Shown here one piece after another: positions 511 to 20,615 of a stretch of DNA of 32,000 nt. The notes under the pieces were generated by a model. It saw only the letters and a list, made by a program, of their open reading frames with translations, was not told the origin of the DNA and did no database searches. A program made the translations under genes and the position numbers. Each line of letters opens with the position of its first letter. Position 1 is the stretch's first letter. Source of the DNA: Candidatus Thorarchaeota archaeon (GTDB taxonomy: Archaea > Asgardarchaeota > Thorarchaeia > Thorarchaeales > Thorarchaeaceae); assembly GCA_003345555.1 (NCBI GenBank), contig PRDJ01000001.1:1-32000 (forward strand), in the 5' to 3' direction.

Positions 511-1740
511 CTATTGCGGATAGGCTTCCTTGAGGCCATCCCAAGAGAATCCTAAAGCCTCGGCAACTAGTACAGCCAGATCCTTCGACTTCTTGCCTGA
601 CCCGGCTTGGGGAAGTTGGTCCTGCATGAAGTCAACACACGACGGACACGCAGAAATCACCTGCTCGGCACTGGTTTGCTCTATGTCCTTTAGTTTGAGC
701 TGGTTTATCTTCAGGGCGAACTCGTTGTCGATAGCTCGGAGAACGCCGCCCGAGCCGCAGCAGAAGCAGTTGTTCTTGTTATGAGGGAGCTCCTCGAACG
801 ATACTCCCGGCAGATTCTCTATGACTTTCCTCGGTTCCTCAAAGAATCCAGAGTTCCTTCCTGCATCACATCCATCATGGAATGTGATTGAGGTCTCCGT
901 GTGACGACCAAGATTGTTCAGTTTGCCGCTATCAAACAGGTCTGCCAGATATCTTGCGCCGTACTCGATTTCGAACGGATGCTCGATGTTCAGAAGCTCA
1001 TGGTACTCATGTGCCCACATCTTGTAGCAACCAGGACAGTTGGTGACTATTCGTTCCACGCCAAGAGCTTTGTACTTCTCTATGTTGTGAGCCGCGAGTT
1101 TCCGAGCCGTGTCAAAATCCCCCGTCATGAGCATCGGGGCCCCGCAGCACCACTCATCCTCCCCGAGTATGGTATAGTCCTGCTGGACCTTGTCCATAAT
1201 CAGAGTCGTGGCTATTGTAGCTTGGATTGGCACTGCCTTGAACGACGAAGCACATCCGAAGAAGAATGCAGTCTTTGCCTTTCGGCCAATCTTGCTTCGC
1301 ACCAGCTCTTCGTCAGGATGCCAGTACGACCACCCGTCGATTCGATCTGACTGAGATTGACCCTGAATGTTGTTAGTCTTCAACAAAGTGTCCCTTGCAG
1401 CTTCGAGGTTCTTTGGCCACATACCCCTTTTCCTGAACTCGGCACGCATCAGCTTGTAGAGCTTGACAAAAGGGATGTCGACTTGACACACTTCCTCACA
1501 TCCGCCGCACAAAGTGCATCCGAATATGGCGTCTCGGAGACCTTCAAGTCCCTCAGAGGGTTCGATGCGGCCCTGGACTAGTGCCCGGGCAAGAAGCATC
1601 TTTCCCTTGCCAGAGTAGCTATCAAGTCGTTTGACCTTGTATGTGGGGCAGGATCCGTGGCCGACTTGACAGAAACTGCACTGAGCGCAGGTGAAGGGCA
1701 TGTCTTGAAGGCCGTGTTTCTCAAGCAGTGGGAAGCGCAT
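511..1740 (-). CDS. Fe-S oxidoreductase with 2x[4Fe-4S] plus two CCG domains (HdrD/GlcF/GlpC family)
   Basis: N-terminal CAQCSFC-x6-CP and CTLCGGCEEVC motifs. Two complete CCG motifs, C-x34-CC-x35-CPGC and C-x35-CC-x36-CPSC, match the CX31-39CCX35/36CXXC consensus. Its stop abuts the menA stop exactly. Confidence 0.9.
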   Translation of the reverse strand: MRFPLLEKHGLQDMPFTCAQCSFCQVGHGSCPTYKVKRLDSYSGKGKMLLARALVQGRIEPSEGLEGLRDAIFGCTLCGGCEEVCQVDIPFVKLYKLMRAEFRKRGMWPKNLEAARDTLLKTNNIQGQSQSDRIDGWSYWHPDEELVRSKIGRKAKTAFFFGCASSFKAVPIQATIATTLIMDKVQQDYTILGEDEWCCGAPMLMTGDFDTARKLAAHNIEKYKALGVERIVTNCPGCYKMWAHEYHELLNIEHPFEIEYGARYLADLFDSGKLNNLGRHTETSITFHDGCDAGRNSGFFEEPRKVIENLPGVSFEELPHNKNNCFCCGSGGVLRAIDNEFALKINQLKLKDIEQTSAEQVISACPSCVDFMQDQLPQAGSGKKSKDLAVLVAEALGFSWDGLKEAYPQ

Positions 1741-2043: not shown

Positions 2044-4035
2044 GTGATGAGAAAGGACGGAGTTCTCGTACTTCTACTGGTTTTCTCCATACTCATTATG
2101 CTGTTGCCTTCTATGACCGTCGCTCTGCGAAGCCAATCTAAGACCACAGACGGCTTTTCCGCAGAGACTACACCACCGGATACAATCATCTGGGAAACCA
2201 TCGGCAGTCCTGATAACCTAGACCCACATGTTGACTACGAAGCGTTCGGTGCGTGGGTGCTTTTCAACGTCTATGAGACATTGTTCACATATCCTTTCAA
2301 TTCGTCCGACACAACGCCAAGCATCCCGTTGCTGGCAGAAGACTTGGTGATATCAGAGGACGGACTCGGGTACACATTTAGTCTGCGTCAGGGGGTGACG
2401 TTCCATGATGGCACCCCGTTCAATGCTTCGAGTGTGAAGTACAACTTCGAGAGAGTCATGAAAATCTTCGATCCTTACGGACCAGCTTGGATGTTCGCGG
2501 AAGCCATCTCGGGGGGACAGGCAGTTGAGGACGCAGTATACGGCTATGGCAATGGCAGCCCCGAACATGCGGCAGCCTATGACAACTGGAAAGCGAACTC
2601 AGGTGCTATCATAGTCCTCGATACATACACAGTCCAGTTGAAACTTGCTCACAGGTGGGCCCCGTTCATAGCTGCGATAACGTGTGAAGTCGGTGCAATG
2701 ATGAGCCCGACCTGGGTTGAAGCACACGGAGGCGTGCAGTACGGTCAGCACAATACCTATGTCGATGAGCATACCTGTGGAAGCGGGCCTTATGTGGTCA
2801 GCAATTGGACCCGGGACTCAACCATCAAGCTGGACATCAACCCTCTATACTGGAGGACTGCATCGGCAAGAGCAGAGTTTCCCCATGCAGGCGAAGTCAA
2901 CCACGTTTTGATTCTGACCAATGATGACACTGAAGCCCGCATTCTCAATGTGTCTAGCGGCCGAACTGATGCCTGCTATTGGCCCGTTACTCATTCAGTC
3001 GGAGTCTGGAACGGACTCAACGGTTCGAGTGGTGATGGCACACGAAAGTCATCGAACCCCAACCTGAAGTTGTGGTGTCAAGAGCCCACTTACAGTGTGA
3101 GCTTCATAGGATTCAACCTGAACCCGTACGTGTTTTCGTCCGTCGGAACCGTACAGAATCCATTTGTCGTGAAAGCCCTGAGAGAGTCACTCTCCTATGC
3201 CCTCAACTACACATCATTCATCGGTCAGGCCGTGAACGGCTTGGGCATGCCGGGTCAGGGACCAATACCAAAAGGTATGTTCGGACATAACGACAGTCTA
3301 TTCATGTACGAGCAGGACATGGATATGGCCGTACAGAAGTGGAACGCTGCTATGGCCGAAGGCCTTAATGGGATTCTGGCCAACATGTCTTACAGAATCG
3401 ATCTGCGCTACCGGGGCGCAGGCGAAAACGCTGCAAGACCGTGTATGACGATAAAGAATGCCATTGCGGATATTCTCTCCGACGCGGATACCATTCAACC
3501 GTCTCAACCCCTGGTTGTCGAGGTAATTGCAGTCCAAGATATGTACCTGCCATTTGACTGGGAGAAATTGTTCATGCTCTACCCGACAGGGTGGATGCCC
3601 GACTATGCTGATCCGGACGACTACGTACGTCCTTATGTCATGAGTACTGGCTATTACGCGACAAGGATTGGGTTGGCAGTTTCTGAGGGCTGGAATTCGA
3701 CACTAGTGGACGGCTGGATCTCAGCTGCGACAGAGGAATTGAACCCCGCAAGCCGAATAGCTCTGTACGGCCTAGTCCAAGACGCTATCGTGAATCAATG
3801 TGCCTACTTCTGGACATATCAGGCAGAGAACTTCCACGTGGAGTCAACCTCCATGAATGGATACGTGTTCAATCCTATGCACGAGCCGTATTTCTATTAC
3901 TACTGGAAGAGTACAGGGACAGTGACCAACGATGGGTTTTGGAATCCAGTAAGTGCCGGCGTCACAATTGCATCCATCGCTGTCATCATTATCGTTGGCA
4001 CAGCAGTAATCCGTTCGCGCAGACTAGCTGGGTGA
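2044..4035 (+). CDS. ABC transporter peptide/nickel-type solute-binding protein (SBP family 5, DppA/OppA-like) with signal peptide and C-terminal membrane anchor
   Basis: Signature FSLRQGVTFHDGTPFNASSVKYNFER, plus GSGPY and WMPDYADPDDY. Hydrophobic N-terminus; C-terminal TM segment followed by RSRR; 10 N-x-S/T sequons. Start is GTG 2044 or ATG 2047. Confidence 0.88.
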   Translation: MMRKDGVLVLLLVFSILIMLLPSMTVALRSQSKTTDGFSAETTPPDTIIWETIGSPDNLDPHVDYEAFGAWVLFNVYETLFTYPFNSSDTTPSIPLLAEDLVISEDGLGYTFSLRQGVTFHDGTPFNASSVKYNFERVMKIFDPYGPAWMFAEAISGGQAVEDAVYGYGNGSPEHAAAYDNWKANSGAIIVLDTYTVQLKLAHRWAPFIAAITCEVGAMMSPTWVEAHGGVQYGQHNTYVDEHTCGSGPYVVSNWTRDSTIKLDINPLYWRTASARAEFPHAGEVNHVLILTNDDTEARILNVSSGRTDACYWPVTHSVGVWNGLNGSSGDGTRKSSNPNLKLWCQEPTYSVSFIGFNLNPYVFSSVGTVQNPFVVKALRESLSYALNYTSFIGQAVNGLGMPGQGPIPKGMFGHNDSLFMYEQDMDMAVQKWNAAMAEGLNGILANMSYRIDLRYRGAGENAARPCMTIKNAIADILSDADTIQPSQPLVVEVIAVQDMYLPFDWEKLFMLYPTGWMPDYADPDDYVRPYVMSTGYYATRIGLAVSEGWNSTLVDGWISAATEELNPASRIALYGLVQDAIVNQCAYFWTYQAENFHVESTSMNGYVFNPMHEPYFYYYWKSTGTVTNDGFWNPVSAGVTIASIAVIIIVGTAVIRSRRLAG

Positions 4036-4187: not shown

Positions 4188-4502
4188 CTACACATTCTGC
4201 AGGAGACCCAGTTCGCTGATTTTCTTCCGTGCGGCCTCACCAAACCCATCAGTGCGCTCCGCCATTGCGAAAAGGAAGTCAGGAAGATCCTTGGGAGGAC
4301 AGCCCCACTTCGGATTCCGAATGTAGTCGACAATATAGTCAATGCCTTGCTCGGGGTCAACATTCTTGATTGACTCGAAGTAGGCCATGGTCGACCCTTC
4401 GTAGGGCATTGATTCTTTATAGGATCTCATGCCCCGGAACGCAAGCAGAAGAAGCACAATTGGTATGACTAGCAGTAACGCTAGAATCTCAAACACGTCC
4501 AT
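4188..4502 (-). CDS. Hypothetical protein with an N-terminal transmembrane helix (about 104 aa)
   Basis: ATG at 4502 is preceded by a strong GGAGGAGG RBS. Begins MDVFEILALLLVIPIVLLLLAF. The ORF-track start at 4559 is probably too long. Confidence 0.65.
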   Translation of the reverse strand: MDVFEILALLLVIPIVLLLLAFRGMRSYKESMPYEGSTMAYFESIKNVDPEQGIDYIVDYIRNPKWGCPPKDLPDFLFAMAERTDGFGEAARKKISELGLLQNV

Positions 4503-4585
4503 TCCTAATCCTCCTCCTCTCATCTCGCATTGGCTTGTTTCGTAATCCAAGGCTCGCATGAAGCCCTAGGCGACTAAACCAAGCA

Positions 4586-4871: not shown

Positions 4872-6827
4872 ATGGAGAAGGTTCTGATGGTGTTAAAGAG
4901 CGAGCAAGTATCGAAACTCGCTGAGGTTTTCGGAGACCGACTCGTCACAGCCAAACATGAGATGATTATTCATTCCCAGGATGTCGGTAGTCTGCCAAAA
5001 CAAGTCGGCTGGCTCATGAACACTAAGCCGGATGCAATCATACAGCCCCAATCTCCGGAGGACATTCAGTTTCTTTATGAGTTTGCTCGGGCTCAGAAGG
5101 TCCCGCTCATCCCCAGGGGTGCTGGAACCTCGGGCTACGGGGGAGCGATACCACGTAACGGCGGCATCGTTGTTGACATGCGCAGGATGGATCGAGTACT
5201 CAATATCGACAAGGAGAACCTTACAGTTACTGTTGAGCCGGGCATATCATGGCTCAATCTGCAGTTCGAACTGAACCGTCAAGGTCTGGATTTGAGATGC
5301 TATCCCTCTTCTGGCATATCGGCCACAGTGGGCGGCTGGGTTGCTCAGGGTGGAGATGGTATCGGATCACTGAAATACGGCAAAATCAATGATAATGTGG
5401 TTGAACTTGAGGTTGTTCTGCCAGAGGGTAGAATTGGCAATACCAAGGACATTGAGCTCTTTTGCGACACAGAAGGTATACTTGGAATCATAACGAAAGT
5501 CACCCTGAAGGTCAGGCAACTCACTCCAATGCGTTCCGTTGTAGTCAGCTTTCCCGAGAATTACTTGATGACATTCGCAATCGAGAAGATTCTGGCTGAG
5601 GGACCATTGCCTTTCACAATAAGATTCGAGGAGAGCAAGTACACGGACCTGAAGAAGAGAGTGTGGGAGTCAGACAAACCTTTCCCATTCCCAGTGAGTC
5701 ACTGTGTTCTCCTTGTTTCTTATGAAGGAACCGAGGACGAGATTCGGGAAGGCTTCGAAGTCGTGAGGCGGGTGGCCGAGGAAATGAAGGGCGCCGTCTA
5801 CGATGATTGGGTTGCAGAGCACGAATGGGAAGACAGGTTCTACCCAATGAAGATCAAGAAGATGGGCCCGAGTCTTGTTGTCGGACAGGCATTCGCCCCA
5901 ATCGAGAGCCTCGAAGGCATTCTGGACGATTTCCAGTTCGAACAGGCCTCAGCGAGAGCTGGCATTGATGGCTATGTGACTTCAAAAACTGGGGTCACGA
6001 TGATGGGTTACTTCCTAGAGGATGAGCGTCGCCACTTCTTCCTGCTCTCTTGGTCCCAAGCCTTCGTAGTATTCAAAATTGCTCAACGTCATGGGGGGCA
6101 CCCTCATTCGACGGGGATTTGGTTTGCCAATTATGCGCCCGCCTATTTCGGCACACGACGCTTGGCTAGAATCCGAGCGGCGAAGGTGGAGTTCGACCCC
6201 GAGGAGATATCTAACCCCGGCAAGATATTCGCGTACTGGCTTCCTTTCATACTCAGGGTTGGCAAGTACTTCATGTGGCTCGGCTTCGATCTTTTTAGAA
6301 ACGGGTTCGGCCGAATTGCGCCTATTATTCTTAGGTGGCTGCAGAATCTCCCGCCCATCAAGTGGATTCTTAGATGGGGCCGGGCATACAGTCCTTGGCC
6401 GGTGCAATATGGCCTCGGTTGCTGTATGGTTGAAGGTGCGGCCGCGGTCGCATCTCGCTGGGATCTTGAGAGATTCGGAATGCTGCCTTTGTTTGGCCCG
6501 CGACAGTGCGATGTGCTCTGGGTCTCTGGTTCACTGACCAAGAAGATGGCACCGCGTCTCCGCCGCATATACGAACAGATGCCTGATCCGAAATTTGTCA
6601 TATCGTTCGGTCAGTGTGCTGCGAGTGGCGGCGTGTTCTGGGATGGATACTCCTTGGTGACGCCGCCTGACAAGGTGATCCCGGTAGATGTCTACTTGCC
6701 GGGCTGTCCTCCCAAGCCGTCGGACTTCGTGAGGGCACACCTGATTCTTGAGAACAAGATTCGAGCGGGAACAACCTATTGGCAACGGAGATACGAGAAT
6801 CAGGATGCCATGGGCTTCGTGAAGTAG
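4872..6827 (+). CDS. nuoB: Fusion protein: VAO/GlcD-family FAD-linked oxidoreductase (aa about 10-452), amphipathic linker, then NuoB/FpoB-type [4Fe-4S] subunit (aa about 505-640)
   Basis: FAD domain motifs: PRGAGTSGYGG, ATVGGWVAQGG..G.GSLKYG, EGILGIITKVTLK, and C-terminal FDPEEISNPGK (6195). NuoB motifs: GLGCCMVE (6417-6431), PRQCDVLWVSGSLTKKMAP.LRRIYEQMPDPKFVISFGQCAASGG, VDVYLPGCPP. One uninterrupted frame. Confidence 0.92.
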   Translation: MEKVLMVLKSEQVSKLAEVFGDRLVTAKHEMIIHSQDVGSLPKQVGWLMNTKPDAIIQPQSPEDIQFLYEFARAQKVPLIPRGAGTSGYGGAIPRNGGIVVDMRRMDRVLNIDKENLTVTVEPGISWLNLQFELNRQGLDLRCYPSSGISATVGGWVAQGGDGIGSLKYGKINDNVVELEVVLPEGRIGNTKDIELFCDTEGILGIITKVTLKVRQLTPMRSVVVSFPENYLMTFAIEKILAEGPLPFTIRFEESKYTDLKKRVWESDKPFPFPVSHCVLLVSYEGTEDEIREGFEVVRRVAEEMKGAVYDDWVAEHEWEDRFYPMKIKKMGPSLVVGQAFAPIESLEGILDDFQFEQASARAGIDGYVTSKTGVTMMGYFLEDERRHFFLLSWSQAFVVFKIAQRHGGHPHSTGIWFANYAPAYFGTRRLARIRAAKVEFDPEEISNPGKIFAYWLPFILRVGKYFMWLGFDLFRNGFGRIAPIILRWLQNLPPIKWILRWGRAYSPWPVQYGLGCCMVEGAAAVASRWDLERFGMLPLFGPRQCDVLWVSGSLTKKMAPRLRRIYEQMPDPKFVISFGQCAASGGVFWDGYSLVTPPDKVIPVDVYLPGCPPKPSDFVRAHLILENKIRAGTTYWQRRYENQDAMGFVK

Positions 6828-6925
6828 TTCCTTCACCGGCGGCAATTCCCGCTCTTGGAGTCAGACTTGCGGTCAGCAATACTTATGTTCCAGAGATTCC
6901 CCTTCGAGGCCGGTCGGTTGACACA

Positions 6926-7393
6926 ATGGGGACCCTCAGGGAAGATAGCGACTTCTATTGTTTGCTTTGGCTTGGAGTAGCCTTGCTGAGCGCATACTAC
7001 TTCAACATCGGATACTTGGGGCTCACAATACCACTGTATCTCAGCACGGTACAGGTTTACTTGCTTCCGTTGGTAGGTTGCCCCTTAATCCTAGTTGTAG
7101 TCTTCGTTTCCTACCTGAGCCCATCCCGAGGCAGGTACAAACCCGTGGCATTCGCTCTGGCGATTGTTGTGTCTCTGTACTTCTACATCGTTGTGAGTTC
7201 ATTACCGCCGGTTGCAGGAATCACTTCCGATACATTGTTTCTATTATCGTGGGGAATTGGCAGCGCTCTTCTTGTGGCATCTGGTTTCTCGATAATGCCG
7301 GGTCGGTCGGAAACAACTAGCCCTGGTATTCTGGATGTTGGATCTCTCAAGTACGGCATTCCGACCGAAGAGGAGCACGAGGAAGCAGCCTAG
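6926..7393 (+). CDS. Hypothetical membrane protein (about 4 TM, 155 aa)
   Basis: Four hydrophobic segments and an acidic tail. ATG 6926 chosen over the longer ORF, which overlaps the preceding gene. Confidence 0.65.
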   Translation: MGTLREDSDFYCLLWLGVALLSAYYFNIGYLGLTIPLYLSTVQVYLLPLVGCPLILVVVFVSYLSPSRGRYKPVAFALAIVVSLYFYIVVSSLPPVAGITSDTLFLLSWGIGSALLVASGFSIMPGRSETTSPGILDVGSLKYGIPTEEEHEEAA

Positions 7394-7812
7394 CCGCGTC
7401 TGATAGTTTCAGCACTTGCTTTCGGAATGGCCAAGTCTCGCTTGGCTCTGGAAAGCTCACGGAGCCAGCTTAATGATGCCACCGTGAGAAGAACACCGAA
7501 TGCGGCCCAAAGAAACAGAATCAGACCGCTGTAAGGTTGTGGGAATAGGACGAGATTCAAGTACCCTTCGATTCCACCAAACACAGCGGACAGGAGAGTC
7601 AATGCTATTCGTGCCATCCTAGTTCTTGAAAATGATATCGCCAATGTTGATGCTACGAAGAGAGCATAGTCAACGAGTACGAGACCATAGAGAAGGTCTA
7701 TGACGCCTGCGTCTGCAACCCACCAAACATACAACGCTATCATTGCAAGGCCGACTGCGAAGACAGTATAGTAGACCAGGATACTCTTCGATTTTGACAC
7801 CAACTCTATCAC
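7390..7812 (-). CDS. Hypothetical membrane protein (about 4 TM, 140 aa)
   Basis: GTG start, four hydrophobic segments, 4-nt convergent overlap with its neighbour. Confidence 0.65.
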   Translation of the reverse strand: MIELVSKSKSILVYYTVFAVGLAMIALYVWWVADAGVIDLLYGLVLVDYALFVASTLAISFSRTRMARIALTLLSAVFGGIEGYLNLVLFPQPYSGLILFLWAAFGVLLTVASLSWLRELSRAKRDLAIPKASAETIRRG

Positions 7813-8604: not shown

Positions 8605-9048
8605 ATGAGGCTCTTCATTGACTTCAATTATGTCTTCGTTTGGGCCCTTCTTGCGGTAGCCCTAGTCGTCATCATGCTTGCGGCATCATGGATACTCCGC
8701 CCTCACATTCTACAGAACTCAGACAAGACTTCCACGTACGAATGCGGCGAAGAGCCGATAGGTCCCGCAAGAGTCTCCTATCCTTACAGCTACTTCCTCT
8801 ACACCATTCTCTTTGTCATCGTTGATGTCATGGGCGCGTTCCTGTGGTTGCTCTCAGTGTCCCAGTTCAGAACTACAGAGGCAGCTGTCTGGCAGATGCT
8901 GTTCTTTGTACTGCTAATCACAGCCGGAATTGGTTTTGCCCTGCGAATGTTCCCGCAGACGATTCTCAGCGGGAAAGAAACCCTCAAGCTCTATAGAGAG
9001 GGAAAGGCGAGACGCGATTCTCAGAAGACGGAGGCGGCCCAGCAATGA
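8605..9048 (+). CDS. nuoA: Complex I-like subunit A (NuoA/FpoA)
   Basis: Three TM segments with the loop motif KTSTYECGEEP and YFLYTILFVIVDV. Confidence 0.9.
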   Translation: MRLFIDFNYVFVWALLAVALVVIMLAASWILRPHILQNSDKTSTYECGEEPIGPARVSYPYSYFLYTILFVIVDVMGAFLWLLSVSQFRTTEAAVWQMLFFVLLITAGIGFALRMFPQTILSGKETLKLYREGKARRDSQKTEAAQQ

Positions 9049-9701
9049 TGATGCAGGGTGCAGAGGTCTTGCTTGAACAGGCAGAGTTCATTGGCGTAGC
9101 TGTCATCGTTCTTGTTCTTGCCTATCTCGCGCTCGAACACAAGGAGATCACCTATGCTGTATTCTTCTTCGGATTCATGGCGGCAGCTGTGGCAGGTTTC
9201 TACCTTCTGCTTGAGGCGCCTTTCTTGGTAGGATTGCAGATAGCTGTCTACACGGGAGGGATAAGTGCCCTGATCATATTCGGTGTCCTCCTCCTTCCTC
9301 GTGCTCAGGACTCCTCGCTGGAAATCTTTCAAACTGCCCGAAGGCGAAGGTTTGGGCTGCTTCTTTCAGGTGCCGTCATGTTACTCTCTGCAATTCTAGC
9401 GTTCTTCTATCCTTGGTCTGACCTACCCCCAGTGAGCCCTCCTGAATTAGCTCAAAGCCTTCAAGGGTTGGCCGCTTGGCTCTGGAGCGGTCATGGGATT
9501 TACGTCGAGATGGTTGCACTGATCATGCTTACTGCCCTTGTCGGGTCCGTTGCCATTCTGAAGATGATGAAGGCGGAAGAACTTCGTCCCTTGACCACAG
9601 AGTCTCATCCAGAGTCTGCGGGAAAGAAGGATGAATCCGGTTCCTCGTCTGCACCCCAAACTGAGACCGGAGAAGGAGCGAAGGAGGCTGGCCCCGAGTG
9701 A
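9045..9701 (+). CDS. nuoJ: Complex I-like subunit J (NuoJ/FpoJ)
   Basis: LQIAVYTGGISALIIFGVLL (NuoJ QxxVYxG motif); five TM segments; ATGA overlap with nuoA. Confidence 0.88.
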   Translation: MMMQGAEVLLEQAEFIGVAVIVLVLAYLALEHKEITYAVFFFGFMAAAVAGFYLLLEAPFLVGLQIAVYTGGISALIIFGVLLLPRAQDSSLEIFQTARRRRFGLLLSGAVMLLSAILAFFYPWSDLPPVSPPELAQSLQGLAAWLWSGHGIYVEMVALIMLTALVGSVAILKMMKAEELRPLTTESHPESAGKKDESGSSSAPQTETGEGAKEAGPE

Positions 9702-10018
9702 TTCCCTTGAGCTGGTACCTAATCGTGGCATTCATGCTCATTGGTCTTGGAGCCTATGGAATGATAACCAAGAGGAACTTGATTCGAATAATCATAGGCG
9801 CTGAGATAATGGCCAATGGAGTTAACATAGCGTTGGTTGCGTTTTCAGTTTACACCGAAGTCTTCACCTTCACTGGCCAATCTCTTGTCATCATCGTAAT
9901 AGCAGTGACAGCTGCTCATACGGCACTGGCAATGGCGCTCATGCTGATGTACAACGCGCGATATTCCACGGTGGACCTTGGAGAGCCGGTTGTTTCGGAG
10001 GGACGAAGGCATGAGTGA
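9698..10018 (+). CDS. nuoK: Complex I-like subunit K (NuoK/FpoK)
   Basis: GMITKRNLIRIIIGAEIMANGVNIALVAFS; three TM segments; GTGA overlap; GGAGG RBS upstream. Confidence 0.9.
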   Translation: MIPLSWYLIVAFMLIGLGAYGMITKRNLIRIIIGAEIMANGVNIALVAFSVYTEVFTFTGQSLVIIVIAVTAAHTALAMALMLMYNARYSTVDLGEPVVSEGRRHE

Positions 10019-10544
10019 GCCAGATATCTATCTCACAACGGTGTCACCCTCGGCGGTTGCTCAGGCAGTGAGAAGCAAATGTCCAGATGTCACGCAGAAG
10101 AGTATGCAGGGGAACCGTCTAGAGCTGATTGTTCCGCCCTCAAGAATCCGGGATGTCGTGGGCCTGCTTAACGAACTGATTTCTGACGCTCTTCCAGAGT
10201 CCGTCTTTGGCATCGACCTTCAGAATGACCGATACGAACTGATCTATGTGTTTTGGTCCCACCTCAACAGAATGCTGTGCCAGCTTCGTGTGAGTCTGGA
10301 AGGTACCGTACCCGAGGTCGACTCTGTCTGTGACATATTCCCGGGATTGGAGTGGCACGAACGCGAGACCCATGAGATGTTCGGCATAGGTTTCAAGGGC
10401 CATCCCGACCTGAGATTGCTTTTGCTCCCGGAGGAGCTGAGCGGCAAGTACCCGCTTCGAAAGAGATTCAAAACTGACAGAAGCCGATTGAGCGAAACTG
10501 GATTGCCCGAAGCTAGGCCAGGTTCAAAGGAGGCCGAAACGTAG
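10011..10544 (+). CDS. nuoC: Complex I-like subunit C (NuoC/FpoC)
   Basis: WHERETHEMFGIGFKGHPDLRLLLLPEE...YPLRK motif. ATG 10011 overlaps the nuoK stop by 8 nt. Confidence 0.92.
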   Translation: MSEPDIYLTTVSPSAVAQAVRSKCPDVTQKSMQGNRLELIVPPSRIRDVVGLLNELISDALPESVFGIDLQNDRYELIYVFWSHLNRMLCQLRVSLEGTVPEVDSVCDIFPGLEWHERETHEMFGIGFKGHPDLRLLLLPEELSGKYPLRKRFKTDRSRLSETGLPEARPGSKEAET

Positions 10545-11680
10545 TGTGCCCTGAGATTGTTGATGAGGCAGCTCAGGTCTGGTTCGGACCCCAGCACGTA
10601 TCGGCTCATGGGTGGGCTACGAAGCTCACAATCGTCGGGGACTACATTGTTGAATGCGATCCGAATGCAGGTTACTTTCACCGCTCGGCGGAGAAGTGCC
10701 TTGAGTTCAGGAACTTCCAGCAGGGCGCACTGATTATGGAACGGCTCTGTATGCTTGAGGCTTTCCTTGCAGAGTATCCTTACGTCAAGGCAGTTGAACA
10801 AATCGCCCAGCTTGATGTGCCAGAGCGAGCAAGGGTGATGAGAACTATAATGATGGAGGCGAGCAGGATTCACAGCCTCCAATTCTGGTGGGGTCAATTC
10901 GGGGCCGAGCTGGGCCTCTTTGCAATGACGCTCTGGCCTTGGGTCGATCGTGAGTATTTCCTCGATGCATTTGAAGAGCTGACCGGTTCTCGACATGCAG
11001 TCTCCTACAGCGCACCTGGTGGCGTCAAGTACGACTTCAACGAGAAGTCTATCAAGATGCTGGAGCGGGCTCTGGATAGGCTTGAGGATCGGCTTCCAAA
11101 GTTTCGTGACATGATTCTGAGAAGCCCCACTTTCAAGTTGCGAACCAAGAAGATTGGACTGTTTGACGCAGCACAGGGTTTGAAGTGGGGGTTGAGTGGG
11201 CCGAACATAAAGGCGTGTGGCATCCCGATGGATTTGCGAAAGGACGACCCCGACCCGAATCTCGCGTACGAGATGTGTGACTGGGAAGTGCCAGTGACGA
11301 CCAATGAGGATCATCCGGGTCAATGCGATGCCTATGACAGGATGTCGCAACGGTTCAAGGAAATCGAGACCTCAGCCAGTATCATCCGTCAACTGCTGCC
11401 TCAAGTGCCTGAAGGTCCTATCATAGACCCCAAAGCCCGCGCGAAGGCAAACAGGCTGCCCGAGGGAGAGGCATACGGTCGTGTCGAGGGCACAAGGGGA
11501 GTAACAACGCTCTTTCTCAAGACTGCTGACAAGGCTCAGACTCCTTACAGAGCAAAGATACGCGGCCCATGTTTCGCCTCGTACTACTCGTTGAAGCATT
11601 TGGTTCCTGGATCGACATTCGCTGACTTCGTCGTAATATTCGGCAGCCTCGACCCATACCCGGGGTGGTGGGATCGCTGA
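10544..11680 (+). CDS. nuoD: Complex I-like subunit D (NuoD/FpoD/MbsL family; not a [NiFe] hydrogenase large subunit)
   Basis: FGPQHVSAHG, GYFHRSAEK, RVEGTRG and YRAKIRGPCF motifs, ending GSLDPYPGWWDR. Both NiFe CxxC motifs are absent. Confidence 0.9.
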   Translation: MCPEIVDEAAQVWFGPQHVSAHGWATKLTIVGDYIVECDPNAGYFHRSAEKCLEFRNFQQGALIMERLCMLEAFLAEYPYVKAVEQIAQLDVPERARVMRTIMMEASRIHSLQFWWGQFGAELGLFAMTLWPWVDREYFLDAFEELTGSRHAVSYSAPGGVKYDFNEKSIKMLERALDRLEDRLPKFRDMILRSPTFKLRTKKIGLFDAAQGLKWGLSGPNIKACGIPMDLRKDDPDPNLAYEMCDWEVPVTTNEDHPGQCDAYDRMSQRFKEIETSASIIRQLLPQVPEGPIIDPKARAKANRLPEGEAYGRVEGTRGVTTLFLKTADKAQTPYRAKIRGPCFASYYSLKHLVPGSTFADFVVIFGSLDPYPGWWDR

Positions 11681-12822
11681 TGGGGGTCGGCACGATTCTT
11701 CAGATAGACATCGTGGGCTGGCTGAGCGGACTGCCCTCCTGGATTTACCTCGTAATCAGCGGGCTGTTCAGCCTTGTCTGGGCCTTCTTCAACTGGATAT
11801 GGAGCATTGTCGTCTGGTTCTGGGCACTGGCTATTTCCCAAATATGGTGGCTGTTCAAGGCCATAGTATTCCCGGGGTTAGTCTTCATACTGTTCTCCAT
11901 CATCTTCTCCGTGTGGTTCACGAGAAAGGTATGGGGCCGAGTGCAAGCAAGACGGGGTCCGTTTCACCTCGGTAAGTACGGGGGCCTCCAGGTATTCGCA
12001 GACGCGATAAAGCTAATTGGAAAAGAAATCGTGATACCTGACAAAGCCAAGCGATGGATGTACAGAATACTTCCATCTCTGCTACTTATCGCAGTTCTCG
12101 TTCCATTTGCGTTTATTCCATGGAGCAACGAATGGTATATCGCGGATCTCTCAGTGAGCCTAATAGTAACGTTTGCATTTCTTACAGTTGTTCCTGTGGT
12201 ATCTCTGCTTTCGGGCTGGATTAGCGGATCGAAGTACACACTCATTGGTGGCTTCAGGGCAGCTAACAATCAATTCGCTGCCGAGATACCCTTGATCATT
12301 TCCTCTGTTGGTCCTGCGATGCTTGCCGGCTCGCTAAGCATCATGGGCATTTCACAAGCTCAGTCAAGTCTTTGGTACTTTCTTCTGCTTCCTGTAAACT
12401 GCGTGACATTCATGGTGAGTGCTACCGTGATAACTGCGCTCGTGCCTTTCGATGCCCCGGTCGCAGACTCGGAGATTCTGTTTGGCTGGAGGACCGAGTT
12501 CAGCGGCATATACTTCACCATGACCTATTTTGCAGAGTTCGCTAAGCAGTTGCTGTTCTCCGGTCTCATAGTAGCTCTGTTCTTCGGAGGTTCATACGGC
12601 TTTGCATTCATGCCTCCTGTCCTGAACTTCATCTTCAAGTTCCTAATCGTTCTCTTCTTCATGATCTTGGTGACATCATCATTCTACAGGATGAGACAGG
12701 ATCAGGTCACTCACTTCTGCTGGAAGTATCTTCTGCCGTTGTCTCTGCTCAACGTTGTCATTGCGATGTTTGCGATTGTGTATGTCCCGGGATTGGCACA
12801 GCTGCTGGGAATCGGAGGTTGA
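11680..12822 (+). CDS. nuoH: Complex I-like subunit H (NuoH/FpoH) with a Trp-rich N-terminal extension
   Basis: RVQARRGP...GGLQVFADAIKLIGKE, SKYTLIGGFR and PFD....SEI..G..TEFSG motifs; TGATG overlap with nuoD. Confidence 0.9.
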   Translation: MGVGTILQIDIVGWLSGLPSWIYLVISGLFSLVWAFFNWIWSIVVWFWALAISQIWWLFKAIVFPGLVFILFSIIFSVWFTRKVWGRVQARRGPFHLGKYGGLQVFADAIKLIGKEIVIPDKAKRWMYRILPSLLLIAVLVPFAFIPWSNEWYIADLSVSLIVTFAFLTVVPVVSLLSGWISGSKYTLIGGFRAANNQFAAEIPLIISSVGPAMLAGSLSIMGISQAQSSLWYFLLLPVNCVTFMVSATVITALVPFDAPVADSEILFGWRTEFSGIYFTMTYFAEFAKQLLFSGLIVALFFGGSYGFAFMPPVLNFIFKFLIVLFFMILVTSSFYRMRQDQVTHFCWKYLLPLSLLNVVIAMFAIVYVPGLAQLLGIGG

Positions 12823-12829
12823 TGAAAGG

Positions 12830-13261
12830 ATGGGTTTCTTTAGCACGCTCGGTGACATATTCAGGGTACTGCGTCATACATTCCGTCAGACGATGACTCG
12901 ACCTTTCACCTACTTCTATCCATTTGAAGACCGGTACTATCCAGACACCACGAGGGGCAGACATATTCACATCAGGAAGAACTGCACGGCGTGCGCACAG
13001 TGTGTGAAAGCTTGTCCTACGATCGCGATAAGAATCGACAAGCAGGACCGCATGTACGAGAAGGATGCCGCCCTGCACTTTGATTATACACGCTGCATAT
13101 TCTGCGGTCTCTGTGTTCAGGCATGCAAGTTCAATGCACTCTTCCACACCAAAATTGTTGATCTCAGTGAAGAAACGAGAGAAGACCTGCAATACGGTCC
13201 TGACAGAATGGGCACACTCGAAAGGAAACCCCTCAAGTGGCGCGGGAGGACATTCAGGTAA
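12830..13261 (+). CDS. nuoI: Complex I-like subunit I (NuoI/FpoI), 2x[4Fe-4S]
   Basis: CTACAQCVKACP and CIFCGLCVQAC motifs; TRGRH and FDYTRC; GGAGGT RBS. Confidence 0.93.
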   Translation: MGFFSTLGDIFRVLRHTFRQTMTRPFTYFYPFEDRYYPDTTRGRHIHIRKNCTACAQCVKACPTIAIRIDKQDRMYEKDAALHFDYTRCIFCGLCVQACKFNALFHTKIVDLSEETREDLQYGPDRMGTLERKPLKWRGRTFR

Positions 13262-14775
13262 TGCAGGTCGTACAACTCCCATTCATGACGATTTCGCTTG
13301 CCATGTTGTTCTTTGGTGCGTTGGCTATCTATTTGCTGAAGAGCAGGCTGGGTGCGGGGGCAGGTAAAGCAGCAGCGGCTATATCATTCGCTTCCCTTGT
13401 GTTGATGATTCCGCCATTCTTCCGAGTTGTGGTGGAAGGCGGGCCTGCGATGGAGTCCGCAACTTGGTCCCAAGTGTTCGGCAGAGTCGGTCTCTACCTT
13501 GATGGCATCGCGTTTCCGATTACATTCGCAGTTGTGGTTCTTGGATTCCTGTCGGTGGTCTATGCCATCGGGTACACTCGAGAGATTCCGAACCAGCCAT
13601 CATTCTTTGCGAACCAGCTATTTTTCATCATGGGGATGCAATGGGTGACATTGGCCACGAATGTCATAGAGTTCTTCATAGCATGGGAGATCATGCTTGT
13701 CCCCACGTACTTCCTGATCCTGTTCTGGGGATTGCCCGAGACCAAGAAGCGCACTGCATTGAAGTTCTGGTTATACACACAGTCCGGCGCATTATGTATC
13801 TTCGTGGGATTCGGTCTACTGTACTATTTCGTAGGCTCATTCGAGCTCTCGGTCATCCAATCACTCCTGCCCACGTACGTGGGCTCGATTGACACTCTGA
13901 AGCTCATCTTTGTCTTGCTCGCCGCAGGGTTCCTCGTCAAGATGGCTGTCTTTCCTATTCACTGGTGGCTGCCCCCAGTCCATGCTGAGGCCCCAACACC
14001 AATCTCCGTTCTACTCTCAGGCGCAATGATTGAGACCGGTGCTTATGCCTTGGTCAGGTTTGGAACAATCATACTAGGAATTGCCGCTTCATCTCTTTCT
14101 GTATGGATTGCTGCAATTGGAGTAGTCACTATGTTCTACGGAGGCCTGATGGCACTGGCCCAGTCAGATATCAAGAGGTTACTTGCGTACTCATCTGTCT
14201 CCCAAATGGGCTATGTTCTCTTTGCGCTTGGCACATTCGCAACTTATGGTGTGTCGGGTGGCCTGTTTCATCTTATCAATCATGCATTCTCAAAGGGCCT
14301 CCTATTCATGACAGCAGGGGTCGTCATTCACGAGACGAAGGTGAGAGACATTGCTCAGCTGGGCGGGTTGTCGAACAAGATGCCAATCACAGCATTCGCC
14401 GCTGCTGTGGGGGCGCTGAGCATCGCAGGGAGTCCTCCGTTGTCGGGCTTCGCCAGCGAATGGATGATGTTCCTCGGAGGATTCCAAGCGGCACTGCCCG
14501 GTGCAGGTGGTTTGGCCCGACCCGAGTTCTTTGTTCTAGCCGTGCTTGGAGTATCAAGCACAATCATCAGCGCTGGGTATATGCTGAGATATCTGTGGAA
14601 AGTCTTCTTGGGACCGACACCGGAGAGCCTTGAGCACGTGAGAGAAGGACCTAGGTCAATGACCGTCCCCATGGTGACTCTGTCGTGCCTTATAGTCCTG
14701 TTCGGAATATTCCCGGGGCTTGCGCTTTCTGTGATAAGCCCGGCGGTGAACGCTATAGCTAACATAATTCCTTGA
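13261..14775 (+). CDS. Additional (fourth) proton-translocating antiporter-like subunit, HyfB/MrpD/NuoM-like
   Basis: AWEIMLVP, VKMAVFPIHWWLPPVHAEAPTPIS, DIKRLLAYSSVSQMGY, HLINHAFSKGLLF and PPLSGFASEW motifs. About 504 aa. TAATG coupling to nuoI. Confidence 0.9.
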   Translation: MQVVQLPFMTISLAMLFFGALAIYLLKSRLGAGAGKAAAAISFASLVLMIPPFFRVVVEGGPAMESATWSQVFGRVGLYLDGIAFPITFAVVVLGFLSVVYAIGYTREIPNQPSFFANQLFFIMGMQWVTLATNVIEFFIAWEIMLVPTYFLILFWGLPETKKRTALKFWLYTQSGALCIFVGFGLLYYFVGSFELSVIQSLLPTYVGSIDTLKLIFVLLAAGFLVKMAVFPIHWWLPPVHAEAPTPISVLLSGAMIETGAYALVRFGTIILGIAASSLSVWIAAIGVVTMFYGGLMALAQSDIKRLLAYSSVSQMGYVLFALGTFATYGVSGGLFHLINHAFSKGLLFMTAGVVIHETKVRDIAQLGGLSNKMPITAFAAAVGALSIAGSPPLSGFASEWMMFLGGFQAALPGAGGLARPEFFVLAVLGVSSTIISAGYMLRYLWKVFLGPTPESLEHVREGPRSMTVPMVTLSCLIVLFGIFPGLALSVISPAVNAIANIIP

Positions 14776-14785
14776 GGTGCGCCAG

Positions 14786-17002
14786 ATGCTGTTCGGACTA
14801 CCCTACTATCTGATTCTCGTCATTCCGCTGGCAGGTTCACTGGTTGTTCCTCTCGCTGGCCGCTTCAGTGAAAAGCTGAGAGACTGGACGCCCGCTTTAC
14901 TCATGGGCATTACGATGATTTTGTGCTGGTCTCTCTTCCCAGACATCGGTAGTCCTCAGGGGCCCACGAGTTGGCCTTGGATTGAGGCGTTGGGCCTTCG
15001 TTTCGAAGTCCTGCTGGATCCTCTGTCCGTCATCATGGCAGTTCTTTCGAGTACGCTATGCTTCCTGATCTACGTTTACAGCACGGAATACATGGCTCAC
15101 GAAGGAGATCGTGACAGGTTCTTCTTCCTAATGCTTGCTTTCGGGGGCGGCATGCTGACCCTTGTGCTCAGCAACAACCTTCTGATTGCATTCATCGGGT
15201 GGGAGATAATGGGCTTCTGTTCCTATGGTCTCATCGGTTTCTGGAACGATAGGAAGAACCCACCCGAGACCGACCCGACTGGTATTGAATCAAAGAATCC
15301 ACTGCTCCGCTTCGAAACAGAAGGTCAGTACAACACTCACTGCGGAACAAAGGCATTCGTCGTAACGAGAGTCGGGGACGCCTTCATGCTCGGAGGAATT
15401 CTCCTTCTGTTCATGTTCACCGGCACCTTCTCATTTACAGAGATGGCTGCCGATGCTCAAAGCTGGTGGCAGATTCTCTCTTCTGTTGGACTGCTATTCC
15501 CGACCTTTCTTCTCATATTCGCAGGTGCCATTGGAAAGTCAGGACAAGCTCCTCTCGACGTCTGGCTTCCCGAAGCAATGGCCGGACCAACGTCGGTCTC
15601 AGCACTGATTCACGCAGCAACCATGGTCAAGGCTGGGATATACATCACGGCTCGTTTTCTGGTCACCATGGCAAGCGCTGCAGACTCCGGAGTCGTTCCC
15701 GAGATTCTGCCTCCGTCTTTCGACTCCGCTGCGTCGTTCTTTACAGTTGTTGCCATAGTCGGGGGCGTTACAGCATTCATGACGGCTACCATGGGAATGG
15801 TTTCCAATGAGCTGAAGCAGGTTCTGGCGTTCTCGACTTTGAGTCAGCTCGGATACATGATGCTAGCGATGGGCACAGGGGGGCTACTCATCAGCTATCA
15901 GGAAGCATACATGAGCGGGATTCTGCACATCATAAGTCACGGAGCTTTCAAGGCTCTTCTCTTTCTTGCGGCGGGCGGAGTCATTCACGTTGTTCACACG
16001 AAGTACCTCAGCAAGATGGGCGGCCTCAAGCAGTACATGCCCAAAACATTCATTGTAATGTGGATTGGTGTGCTTGCTCTTTCAGGCATTCCGCCGTTCT
16101 CAGGTTTCTGGTCGAAGGATTCGATAATCGAGTACGCATATGACCTCGCGCTCCACAATGATGTTGGTATCTTCCTCTTCATTCTGGCTATTCTTGCAGC
16201 AGCTTGTACAATCTTCTACAGCATAAGGCTCATGGGGATGGCTTTCTATGGGCCTTCACGCGGCGTCGCATCAACCGAGGATATGAGTGCCTCACTAGGT
16301 CACGAGTCTCACGGGCACTCGGAGCAAGAACCGCATACCGAGCATGAGGAGCCGCATGACCCCGGCCGGGCAATGATGTGCCCTCTATACATTCTCGCTG
16401 CTTTCACAATCGTAGCCTTTGCTGTCTTTCCGTTTGTTGAGGCCGTGCTGTTCAGCGAAGGTCCTATGACAGTATCAGTGTGGACAAGCGTTCTCACAGA
16501 GATGGTGCTTGTGAAACTGACAATGCCGGGATTGGTGCCTTTCGTGTTCACATTGGGGGCATTGGCCTTGGGAGGAATTCCGGCCTATATTCTTTACATT
16601 GGACGGTCGGACCGGCCGAATACGGCGATACCCGATGCCGGGATCAGGAAGCGGCTATACGGTTTTCTCAAGCATCGTTGGTACATCAATGAATTCTACT
16701 ATTGGATTGTCGGTGGCGTTCTCAGATTCACGAGTTCTTGGAAGTCGAAGATAGATGACCGTATCATAGACGGCATTGATTTCGGCTCGGCTCGTACGGC
16801 AATCTCGGCGTCCAAGCGAATAAGATGGTTTGACGATCACATAGTTGATGGATTTGCAGAGGAGATATCGACGGCAAGCGTCGCTGCGTCAGAGTCGAGC
16901 GAGGTAATCGAGACCGGAAGAGTCAACGACTATGTGGCTGTTCTCATGTTCGGTGTCGGAGTTCTGGTTATTCTTGCTTTGATTTCCTTGGGGGTGATCT
17001 AG
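14786..17002 (+). CDS. nuoL: Complex I-like subunit L (NuoL/FpoL) with an extended transverse helix
   Basis: GWEIMGFCSYGLIGFW, KAFVVTRVGD, GKSGQAPLDVWLPEAMAGPTSVSALIHAATMV, FSTLSQLGY, HGAFKALLF and GFWSKD motifs; His-rich loop; C-terminal HL helix plus TM16. ATG 14786 follows a GAGGTG RBS (GTG 14777 is an alternative). Confidence 0.95.
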   Translation: MLFGLPYYLILVIPLAGSLVVPLAGRFSEKLRDWTPALLMGITMILCWSLFPDIGSPQGPTSWPWIEALGLRFEVLLDPLSVIMAVLSSTLCFLIYVYSTEYMAHEGDRDRFFFLMLAFGGGMLTLVLSNNLLIAFIGWEIMGFCSYGLIGFWNDRKNPPETDPTGIESKNPLLRFETEGQYNTHCGTKAFVVTRVGDAFMLGGILLLFMFTGTFSFTEMAADAQSWWQILSSVGLLFPTFLLIFAGAIGKSGQAPLDVWLPEAMAGPTSVSALIHAATMVKAGIYITARFLVTMASAADSGVVPEILPPSFDSAASFFTVVAIVGGVTAFMTATMGMVSNELKQVLAFSTLSQLGYMMLAMGTGGLLISYQEAYMSGILHIISHGAFKALLFLAAGGVIHVVHTKYLSKMGGLKQYMPKTFIVMWIGVLALSGIPPFSGFWSKDSIIEYAYDLALHNDVGIFLFILAILAAACTIFYSIRLMGMAFYGPSRGVASTEDMSASLGHESHGHSEQEPHTEHEEPHDPGRAMMCPLYILAAFTIVAFAVFPFVEAVLFSEGPMTVSVWTSVLTEMVLVKLTMPGLVPFVFTLGALALGGIPAYILYIGRSDRPNTAIPDAGIRKRLYGFLKHRWYINEFYYWIVGGVLRFTSSWKSKIDDRIIDGIDFGSARTAISASKRIRWFDDHIVDGFAEEISTASVAASESSEVIETGRVNDYVAVLMFGVGVLVILALISLGVI
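16751..16906 (+). repeat. Degenerate 26-codon tandem duplication inside the NuoL amphipathic helix
   Basis: IDDRIIDG at 16751 and FDDHIVDG at 16829 are exactly 78 nt apart; the two units share 7/26 identities plus I/V and I/F conservative pairs. Confidence 0.75.
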
Positions 17003-20168: not shown

Positions 20169-20615
20169 ATGGGATTTCTGAGTAAACTTCAGGCGCCGAA
20201 GGCAACCGTAGCAGTGATTCTCGACAAGGGAACCTACAGTCTCAGAGAGCCGCTGCAAGGTAAGCTTGACGTCTCGTCATCCGAGGAGTTCGACGCGGAC
20301 GAACTGCGTATTGAGTTCTGGGTTAGTGAATGGACTAAGGCCACCCAACAGAAACAGGTCGGACAGCAGACCGTACCCGTAACCGCCGAGCAAAACATCA
20401 AACTTCACCAAGGCAAGCTTACGGTGGCTGGAGGAAGACACTTTACATCTGGCTTCCGTGAAAGCATTCCGTTTAGTCTACCGTTGCCGTCAAACGTGCC
20501 CCCAACCTACCGCGGTCAAAACGCCCGCAACACTTGGATGATGAAAGCCGTAATAGGTGTCAAAGGCCGACCTGATGTAGAGACGCGAGATATGGAAGTC
20601 GTCATCACCTATTGA
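20169..20615 (+). CDS. Single-domain arrestin-N/Vps26/SpoOM-like Ig-fold protein
   Basis: LDKGTYSLREPLQGKL and IPFSLPLPSNVPPTYRGQNARNTWMMKAVI match the arrestin-N pattern (Y..G..V.G.V ... PF.F.LP...PPS..G....I.Y..KA). Confidence 0.7.
   Translation: MGFLSKLQAPKATVAVILDKGTYSLREPLQGKLDVSSSEEFDADELRIEFWVSEWTKATQQKQVGQQTVPVTAEQNIKLHQGKLTVAGGRHFTSGFRESIPFSLPLPSNVPPTYRGQNARNTWMMKAVIGVKGRPDVETRDMEVVITY

Follow-up and report, generated by a model that had tools for sequence, protein, structure and literature searches.

A Thorarchaeal NuoB fusion protein whose flavin domain lacks the metal ligands of GlcD-type dehydrogenases

The stretch of DNA analysed here (the window, 32,000 nucleotides) covers positions 1 to 32,000 of contig PRDJ01000001.1 (assembly GCA_003345555.1) of a Candidatus Thorarchaeota archaeon. 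On its forward strand, a single open reading frame (ORF) at 4872-6827 encodes a protein of 651 amino acids (aa), in which a VAO/GlcD-type flavin adenine dinucleotide (FAD) domain is joined by an amphipathic linker to a NuoB domain. According to our alignments, the three Zn/Mn ligands of GlcD, LDHD and D2HGDH are replaced in this fusion protein by T370, M378 and P411, and the histidine acting as catalytic base is retained as H412. The N-terminal 450 residues probably belong to a large metal-independent sister subfamily of the GlcD/LDHD/D2HGDH/Dld-II enzymes. Our favoured reading, to which we assign a probability of roughly 55%, is an active, metal-independent FAD/iron-sulphur (Fe-S)-CCG dehydrogenase head that would exchange electrons through a CCG protein with a membrane carrier or a dithiol, and that would be tethered to NuoB at the membrane surface.

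In human D2HGDH, Zn2+ is held by His434, His441 and Glu475, each of them essential, whereas His476 is not a metal ligand but the catalytic base on the C2-hydroxyl, and Arg386 holds the C1-carboxylate of the substrate. D-lactate dehydrogenases (D-LDHs) and GlcD share these five residues without exception (PMC7801405). E. coli GlcD (annotated K-12 record) accordingly reads HAGDGNMH and GEHG. The initial annotation had proposed that VTSKTGVTM and GGHPHSTGIW, within 5950-6230, stand in place of these motifs and that the metal ligands are therefore absent. Both strings are present (aa 369-377, nt 5976-6002, and aa 408-417, nt 6093-6122) and the loss of the three ligands is borne out. The register of the first motif was also correct: in a BLASTP comparison of aa 1-460 with E. 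coli GlcD, TSKTGVTM pairs with HAGDGNMH, which places T370 at His434 and M378 at His441, and the segment VTSKTGVTMM (aa 369-378, 5976-6005) takes the place of the xHxGDGNxH strand. The second motif had been set two residues off, with STG against EHG; it is HPH that corresponds to GEH, and the catalytic histidine is present. Here GGH---PHSTG pairs with GGSISGEHGIG, with P411 at Glu475 and H412 at His476, and HGGHPHSTGIW (aa 407-417, 6090-6122) replaces GGxxSGEHGxG with a loop shortened by three residues. In local HMMER alignments, LctD (7qh2) and ADPS (2uuu) likewise have the histidine of EHG/HHH opposite H412, and a MAFFT alignment with paralogues from the same genome gave the same register for H412. 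The position of Arg386 is occupied by Lys327, a conservative change, within RFYPMKIK (aa 322-329, 5835-5858), a segment that also carries R322 and K329 and was located by the GlcD alignment and by the columns of orthologues and relatives.

These columns were checked in three sets: 45 fused orthologues, 69 distant relatives (33-40% identity) and the 150 nearest cluster representatives (clustering at 50% identity), taken from a library of 1.84 billion, about 140 of these 150 having aligned at the ligand columns. The H/H/E triad was found in none of the three sets. Across the orthologues and distant relatives the ligand columns hold only T/N/V/A/I, M/L and P/A/V, respectively. Since the same non-ligand residues recur throughout, the loss of the triad is neither chance nor the accident of one sequence. 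When all conserved H/D/E/C columns were listed, no further cap-domain column with a subfamily-wide His or Cys emerged that might rebuild the triad. At the carboxylate position Arg is found in 32 of the 45 orthologues, with Lys in the other 13, and in 54 of the 69 distant relatives. The base position is His in all 45 orthologues but Tyr in 66 of the 69 distant relatives; among the closest representatives it is Tyr in 105 and His in six. Most subfamily members thus have Tyr where the metal-dependent enzymes have the catalytic His.

The subfamily signature that results from these comparisons comprises W319, R322, R/K327, K329, E339, E/D366 and GG-[RKH]-x-[YH]-S-x-G-[ILM]-[WY]. The fusion protein fits this signature of metal-less FAD/CCG proteins, with R322 and K329 near-invariant across the subfamily, which among the top matches alone spans no fewer than about 140 clusters at 50% identity. 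The Thorarchaeal clade, made up of the fused proteins and two unfused ones (P0051/52), differs from all others by a coordinated switch, E339Q, R410H and Y412H. Within RHGGHPHS, the residues H407, H410 and H412 are invariant in 45/45 fused orthologues, with H407 as an addition of the fused proteins to this switch. The conserved pocket is charged (R/K327, K329, E/Q339, D/E366, R/H410, Y/H412), which argues for a real substrate site. The initial annotation had also considered that the domain may serve as a relay between two-electron and one-electron carriers; for a relay without a substrate of its own we found no specific support, and the pocket speaks against it.

The FAD-binding part was described as intact in the initial annotation, and this was confirmed. 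FAD_binding_4 (aa 53-188, 5028-5435) matches PF01565 with 141 bits (2.6e-41) over profile positions 1-135 of 139, and in the AlphaFold2 (AF2) model, built from a 138-sequence alignment, it mostly reaches a predicted local distance difference test (pLDDT) score of 95-98. The model as a whole scores 85-99 for aa 10-450, including the cap or substrate domain FAD-oxidase_C (aa 221-452, 5532-6227), which matches PF02913 with 38 bits over profile positions 6-248 of 248. The NuoB half of the full fusion was modelled poorly (pLDDT 25-48) because of a shallow NuoB alignment. A structural comparison, as had been suggested, was carried out with Foldseek. The top match of the FAD domain is mouse LDHD with a target-normalised TM score of 0.85, a root-mean-square deviation of 3.0 Å and 23% identity, followed by LctD (0.80) and AGPS (about 0.7); the fold is LDHD-like and the metal triad is not kept. 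As a candidate feature, covalent flavinylation was rejected: the PRGAGTSGYGG region holds no His or Cys, and H412 would lie on the substrate side by homology.

The FAD domain is under purifying selection. Among nine orthologues, the nonsynonymous divergence (dN) amounts to 0.19 in each of the two FAD subdomains, compared with 0.12 in the linker and 0.09 in NuoB, and synonymous sites are saturated. These data bear on a possible non-catalytic role, in which the domain would retain the flavoprotein fold but serve only as an appendage for structure, assembly or regulation. Residues that the parent family cannot do without are indeed gone. The VAO-family protein GLDH on plant complex I assembly intermediates is what we take to be a precedent for such an appendage. 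A VAO flavoprotein bound to complex I is also among the HMMER matches (7a24 chain z). However, the strong purifying selection extends over the entire domain, the FAD-binding motifs are intact, the invariant charged pocket residues are particular to the subfamily and clade, and 31 of 36 fused loci have kept the redox partner gene as a neighbour. We consider an appendage highly improbable.

The partner gene in the window lies at 511-1740 on the reverse strand and encodes a 409-aa protein with one Fer4_8 and two CCG domains. Its residues 15-402 align with positions of about 500-880 of FAD+FeS+CCG proteins of about 1000 aa (E 1e-54 to 1e-65), which are distant relatives of the fusion's FAD domain. 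From this correspondence the CCG protein is the split C-terminal half of these longer fusions, and up to four clusters in a chain could come from it. In other genera it occurs next to the fusion gene with 67-71% identity, and the CCG gene is present in 31 of the 36 fused-type loci, the remaining ones having shorter flanks. In the window a solute-binding gene (SBP_bac_5, 2044-4035) and a small ORF (4188-4559, reverse strand) separate the CCG gene from the fusion gene, and in four related genomes the two are directly divergent with about 200-400 bp between them. Among 79 named loci, the HdrD/GlcF/TfrB-like 2x[4Fe-4S]+2xCCG module is fused to the FAD gene or directly abuts it wherever the subfamily locus is not of the fused type. 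The suggestion in the initial annotation that an STG(I/L)(W/Y)F subfamily is often fused to [4Fe-4S]+CCG domains is therefore well founded and is reinforced by these loci. The best curated match of the CCG partner is TfrB (170 bits), a likeness to TfrAB/HdrD systems that extends to one subfamily member with three GcvH domains. However, all matches are below the family cutoffs, and the flavoprotein here is of the VAO type and not of the fumarate reductase type.

Further fusion partners were found within the subfamily. P0124 (867 aa, 40% identical) combines the FAD domain with an NrfD-type polytopic membrane quinone subunit, P0248 (1391 aa) combines it with three GcvH lipoyl-carrier domains and Fer4+CCG, and P0255 with Fer4 and a GltB-like flavin mononucleotide (FMN) domain. 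Asgard paralogues of about 573 aa end in 2-4 transmembrane (TM) helices. The Asgard members of the subfamily are always membrane-tethered, by a TM tail, NrfD, an amphipathic tail or NuoB.

The source genome itself (2.3 Mb) encodes nine more VAO-type FAD paralogues (contigs C6, C8, C20, C25, C35 and C73), at least seven of which abut a Fer4+CCG gene, so that two-component FAD/CCG oxidoreductases are markedly expanded. All nine lack the H/H/E triad, and one (C8:1465-2889) carries an ADPS-like GGTMSHQHGVG loop. In several Thorarchaeal genomes, more FAD/CCG paralogue pairs (35-37% identity, about 573 aa, TM tails) lie within 10-30 kb of the FAD-NuoB gene (L061/L078 in CP070761.1, L069/L076, L047/L089, and G137:C1:119-132 kb).

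The obvious alternative is that the protein is a dehydrogenase for D-lactate, glycolate or another D-2-hydroxyacid that became metal-independent, which would make the complex a D-lactate-linked respiratory pump and the automatic name functionally right. With the metal-dependent D-2-hydroxyacid dehydrogenases (human D2HGDH 6LPN, mouse LDHD 8JDx, A. woodii LctD 7QH2 and E. coli GlcD), the domain shares the two-domain fold, the FAD-binding motifs, the C-terminal DPxxIxNPGK and, in the Thorarchaeal clade, the base His, and an Arg or Lys that may play the same role stands at the position of the C1-carboxylate Arg. Its best structural neighbours are LDHD, P. dilatatus D-LDH and LctD. It differs in the three replaced ligands and in the shortened EHG loop, and identity is only 23-25%. 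The Dld-II-type enzymes (S. oneidensis Dld-II, D. vulgaris DVU3027/28 and E. coli YdiJ) have the same modules in the same order, fused or split, and characterised Dld-II enzymes have the FAD+FeS+CCG architecture (PMC4481167). However, DVU3027/28 and YdiJ, the characterised enzymes of this architecture in which the motif was checked, keep GEHG, whereas the fusion has HPH and no His pair. DVU3027 retains a GEHGD-like motif with an essential His (PMC4481167), and YdiJ, for which D-2-hydroxyglutarate dehydrogenase activity has been reported (PMC9504171), retains both the H-x6-H pair and GEHG.

The RefSeq product name of E. coli Dld is quinone-dependent D-lactate dehydrogenase, and it is also without the H/H/E motifs. 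It acts at the membrane surface and reduces quinone directly. Like the fusion, it is a VAO-type flavoenzyme lacking the metal motifs, and it provides a model for a membrane-tethered metal-free head; unlike the fusion, it has no CCG partner, and the similarity does not exceed the generic fold (BLASTP E of about 1). Since E. coli Dld oxidises D-lactate without the metal site, the lactate hypothesis is made less likely by the missing triad but still has some standing. Against it stand the individual essentiality of each triad residue in D2HGDH (PMC7801405) and the scores of the ORF, which are far under the curated GlcD cutoffs (TIGR00387, 140.6 vs 567.9 bits; NF008408, 104.8 vs 897); the YdiJ model NF049975 covers just the FAD-binding part, with 94.6 bits against a cutoff of 1350. 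A lactate permease or lactate-pathway neighbour is absent here and in 16 distant loci, and the Thorarchaeal pocket is remodelled further by the E339Q, R410H and Y412H switch. In addition, the lactate/pyruvate couple (about -190 mV, a textbook value) would probably deliver too little energy for a four-antiporter pump with a menaquinone-like acceptor. We therefore regard this alternative as unlikely. The earlier statement that a GlcD or D-LDH annotation is probably wrong holds in so far as the triad is gone, the curated cutoffs are failed and the label rests on the fold. It is weakened by the triad-less E. coli Dld, and the warning missed the names in use: NCBI product names for the fusion proteins are 'NuoB' or 'FAD-binding oxidoreductase', not glycolate oxidase.

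The C-terminal part of the fusion is a NuoB by its profile scores, its cluster ligands and its gene context. The NuoB domain (aa 497-634, 6360-6773) exceeds the curated cutoffs (NF005012, 180.9 bits vs 116; TIGR01957, 173.6 vs 142.7), the Oxidored_q6/NuoB Pfam match covers aa 518-622, and the N2 ligand motifs CCxxE, GxC and GCPP are all present, with the four cluster cysteines at CC517/518, C582 and C612. With NuoB, Nqo6, PSST and FpoB it has in common these C-terminal 140 residues with the four N2 cysteines and the position of its gene upstream of a nuoAJKCDHI-LMN cluster; unlike them, it carries a flavoenzyme of 450 aa and an amphipathic linker of 45 aa on the N-terminus. This linker (aa 453-496, 6228-6359) is rich in Trp, Arg and Phe and is better kept than the FAD domain (81% aa identity). 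AF2 predicts helices at 457-477, 479-491 and 496-505, which are strongly amphipathic (hydrophobic moment 0.52-0.80) and nearly invariant.

The ORF is conserved with 72-88% identity across many Thorarchaeota assemblies, and the FAD-NuoB fusion was found in Candidatus Thorarchaeota SMTZ1-45, AB_25, OWC2/3, BC and the closed bin27 chromosome. In a scan of 151 Asgard genomes, the full-length fusion is limited to the source's own Thorarchaeal family, where about 20 of the 27 genomes have it. In the library of 1.84 billion representatives, one 50%-identity cluster alone spans both the FAD and NuoB domains. The fusion and an orthologous NuoD occur in the same genomes, and four genera of the family have neither. 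The synteny in five other genera comprises a MenA-like UbiA gene, the divergent CCG gene, FAD-NuoB, two small TM proteins, and nuoAJKCDHI with four antiporter-like genes. The fusion is the sole NuoB in the genome; three other Oxidored_q6 genes encode small subunits of group-3 hydrogenases. A survey of archaeal fusions lists just BC and BCD fusions for complex I (PMC11237513), and our literature searches (Thorarchaeota NuoB, GlcD-HdrD fusion, Asgard complex I, Dld-II) gave no account of a FAD-NuoB fusion or of a metal-less subfamily.

A nuo cluster is missing from genus g13, and the gene order there is prenyl-diphosphate synthase, MenA-like, CCG (68% identity) and an unfused FAD protein (56% identity). 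An example of such a locus is L027:6685-11941 of genome G140, where the first gene is IdsA-like. The unfused FAD protein retains the amphipathic tail including PPLKWI, with which the NuoB segment of the fusion begins; this suggests a secondary loss of NuoB and nuo and not an ancestral unfused state, and the protein may thus be a fission product. In a FastTree phylogeny the fused clade is sister to the unfused g13 proteins (support 100). Fused and unfused Thorarchaeal proteins together nest in a clade (100% support) that also holds the NrfD and FeS+CCG fusions but not E. coli GlcD. The joining of GlcD with paralogues of the source genome is a long-branch join, which we did not rely on.

How the flavin domain relates to the pump is the point at which a second alternative has to be weighed. 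The FAD domain could be the pump's own electron input or output module, replacing NuoEFG/FpoF and wired to N2 directly or via the CCG clusters, with no free quinone pool. This is consistent with the absence of NuoF and of any other NuoB from the genome, with the strict co-occurrence of the covalent fusion and the nuo cluster, with the high conservation of the linker and with the potential four-cluster chain of the CCG protein. Also in its favour, NuoD lacks the quinone tyrosine and a quinone-ring pathway was not found. However, in solved complex I structures, as is generally known, NuoB has its N-terminus at the heel next to the membrane, and NuoI, through which electrons come in, is at the far end of the chain. 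In addition, the FAD+CCG module, in part with the MenA-like gene, occurs without any Nuo in the sister genus, among the paralogues and in other phyla. The NuoD argument loses weight as well: in five plain-NuoB Asgard Nuo-like complexes the tyrosine is also replaced (M/F/V/L), and a link between its loss and the FAD fusion was thereby ruled out. Other Asgard complexes without NuoEFG are presumed to be ferredoxin-driven (PMC9723677). Taken together, we regard such direct wiring as rather unlikely.

Under the favoured reading of a tethered metal-independent dehydrogenase, the non-covalent FAD site would exchange a hydride with a substrate that is a small organic anion, unassisted by a metal. The flavin would split the electron pair into single electrons for the Fe-S/CCG partner (511-1740, reverse strand), which in turn would trade them, in either direction, with a dithiol/disulfide or a prenylated carrier soluble in the membrane. 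The amphipathic linker would hold this FAD/CCG oxidoreductase at the N-terminal end of NuoB, the only one available to a complex I-like pump that has four antiporters and no NuoEFG. The head would thus be a side port that shares the acceptor or donor pool of the pump, and not a replacement of the NADH module that feeds NuoI. A role of a prenylated carrier is suggested by the MenA-like gene, a conserved neighbour of the FAD/CCG pair which recurs in Borrarchaeum and a Korarchaeote. In the window the 3' part of this UbiA prenyltransferase gene (PF01040) is found at 1-510 on the forward strand, truncated by the contig end; its full-length orthologue in G140 scores highest on MenA models.

Several observations weigh against this interpretation. 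No known naphthoquinone-ring pathway was found in the genome: MqnA/D and MqnC were not detected, and MenB and MenD only as sub-threshold paralogues, in a metagenome-assembled genome that is 93% complete. NuoD reads ERLCMLE at the place of the canonical RxDY (10742-10753, NuoD aa 67-70), by which the quinone-binding Tyr becomes Met, a change kept in three Thorarchaeal orthologues. Without the ring pathway and the NuoD tyrosine, a quinone pool shared by head and pump is unproven. The fusion partners diverge, with NrfD hinting at quinone and the three GcvH domains at a lipoyl dithiol, and the Pfam families of 76 neighbouring genes at 16 distant subfamily loci held no hint of the substrate. The literature yielded neither a characterised member of the metal-less subfamily nor any biochemical datum. 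The phylogeny consists of FastTree only and has long branches at the outgroup. Finally, H407, H410 and H412 may form a new metal site.

A bolder version combines some of these points. In Thorarchaeia, the NADH or F420 head of complex I would have been replaced by a hard-wired flavin and Fe-S/CCG module, and pumping would be coupled to an organic acid or a dithiol/disulfide, possibly without free quinone, with H407/H410/H412 and Q339 as a new catalytic or metal site. At this point we consider this proposal speculative and quite unlikely.

The remaining genes of the region complete the picture of the pump. The nuoA-J-K-C-D-H-I genes and four antiporter-like genes, identified by profile searches and synteny, occupy 8605-20019 on the forward strand, without nuoB and nuoEFG. 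The antiporter-like genes after nuoI (13237-20019) encode 512, 741, 505 and 499 aa; the NuoL of 741 aa is unusually long and the layout is of the '2M' type of complex I. NuoD ends in DPYPGWWDR. Two small conserved membrane proteins are encoded between the fusion gene and nuoA. The first (6779-7393, forward strand) has 3-4 TM helices and probably starts near 6926; it is found at the same position in five other genera with 38-42% identity. The second (7390-7812, reverse strand) has at least three TM helices and shows 31-34% identity in five other genera. Neither has a Pfam match or a His able to bind haem, and both are candidate extra subunits. After the last antiporter gene, an ORF of 148 aa (20169-20615) gives a weak Arrestin_N match (26.2 bits, cutoff 24.9) and a Spo0M match; it is not kept at that position in the four relatives checked.

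For the subfamily, these results mean that the use of lactate or glycolate should not be inferred from genes of this subfamily, since the catalytic metal site that defines GlcD and D-LDH is missing. Metabolic reconstructions of Asgard archaea and of anaerobes (Bacillota, Chloroflexota, Methanoperedens, Methanococcoides, Korarchaeota) can inherit GlcD/D-LDH labels for its members, and DVU3027 already carried a label of the glycolate oxidase/D-lactate dehydrogenase type (PMC4481167). As a large CCG-coupled group for which we found no characterised member in the literature, the subfamily is a well-defined target for enzyme discovery. In Thorarchaeia, a flavin site is covalently joined to the terminal Fe-S subunit of a complex I that has four pumps and no head. 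No other membrane redox pump was seen in these genomes, and the function of the flavin site is key to what drives, or is driven by, this one. If a hard-wired flavin/CCG head is true, the archaeal relatives of eukaryotes would have a complex I-type energy converter of a new class.

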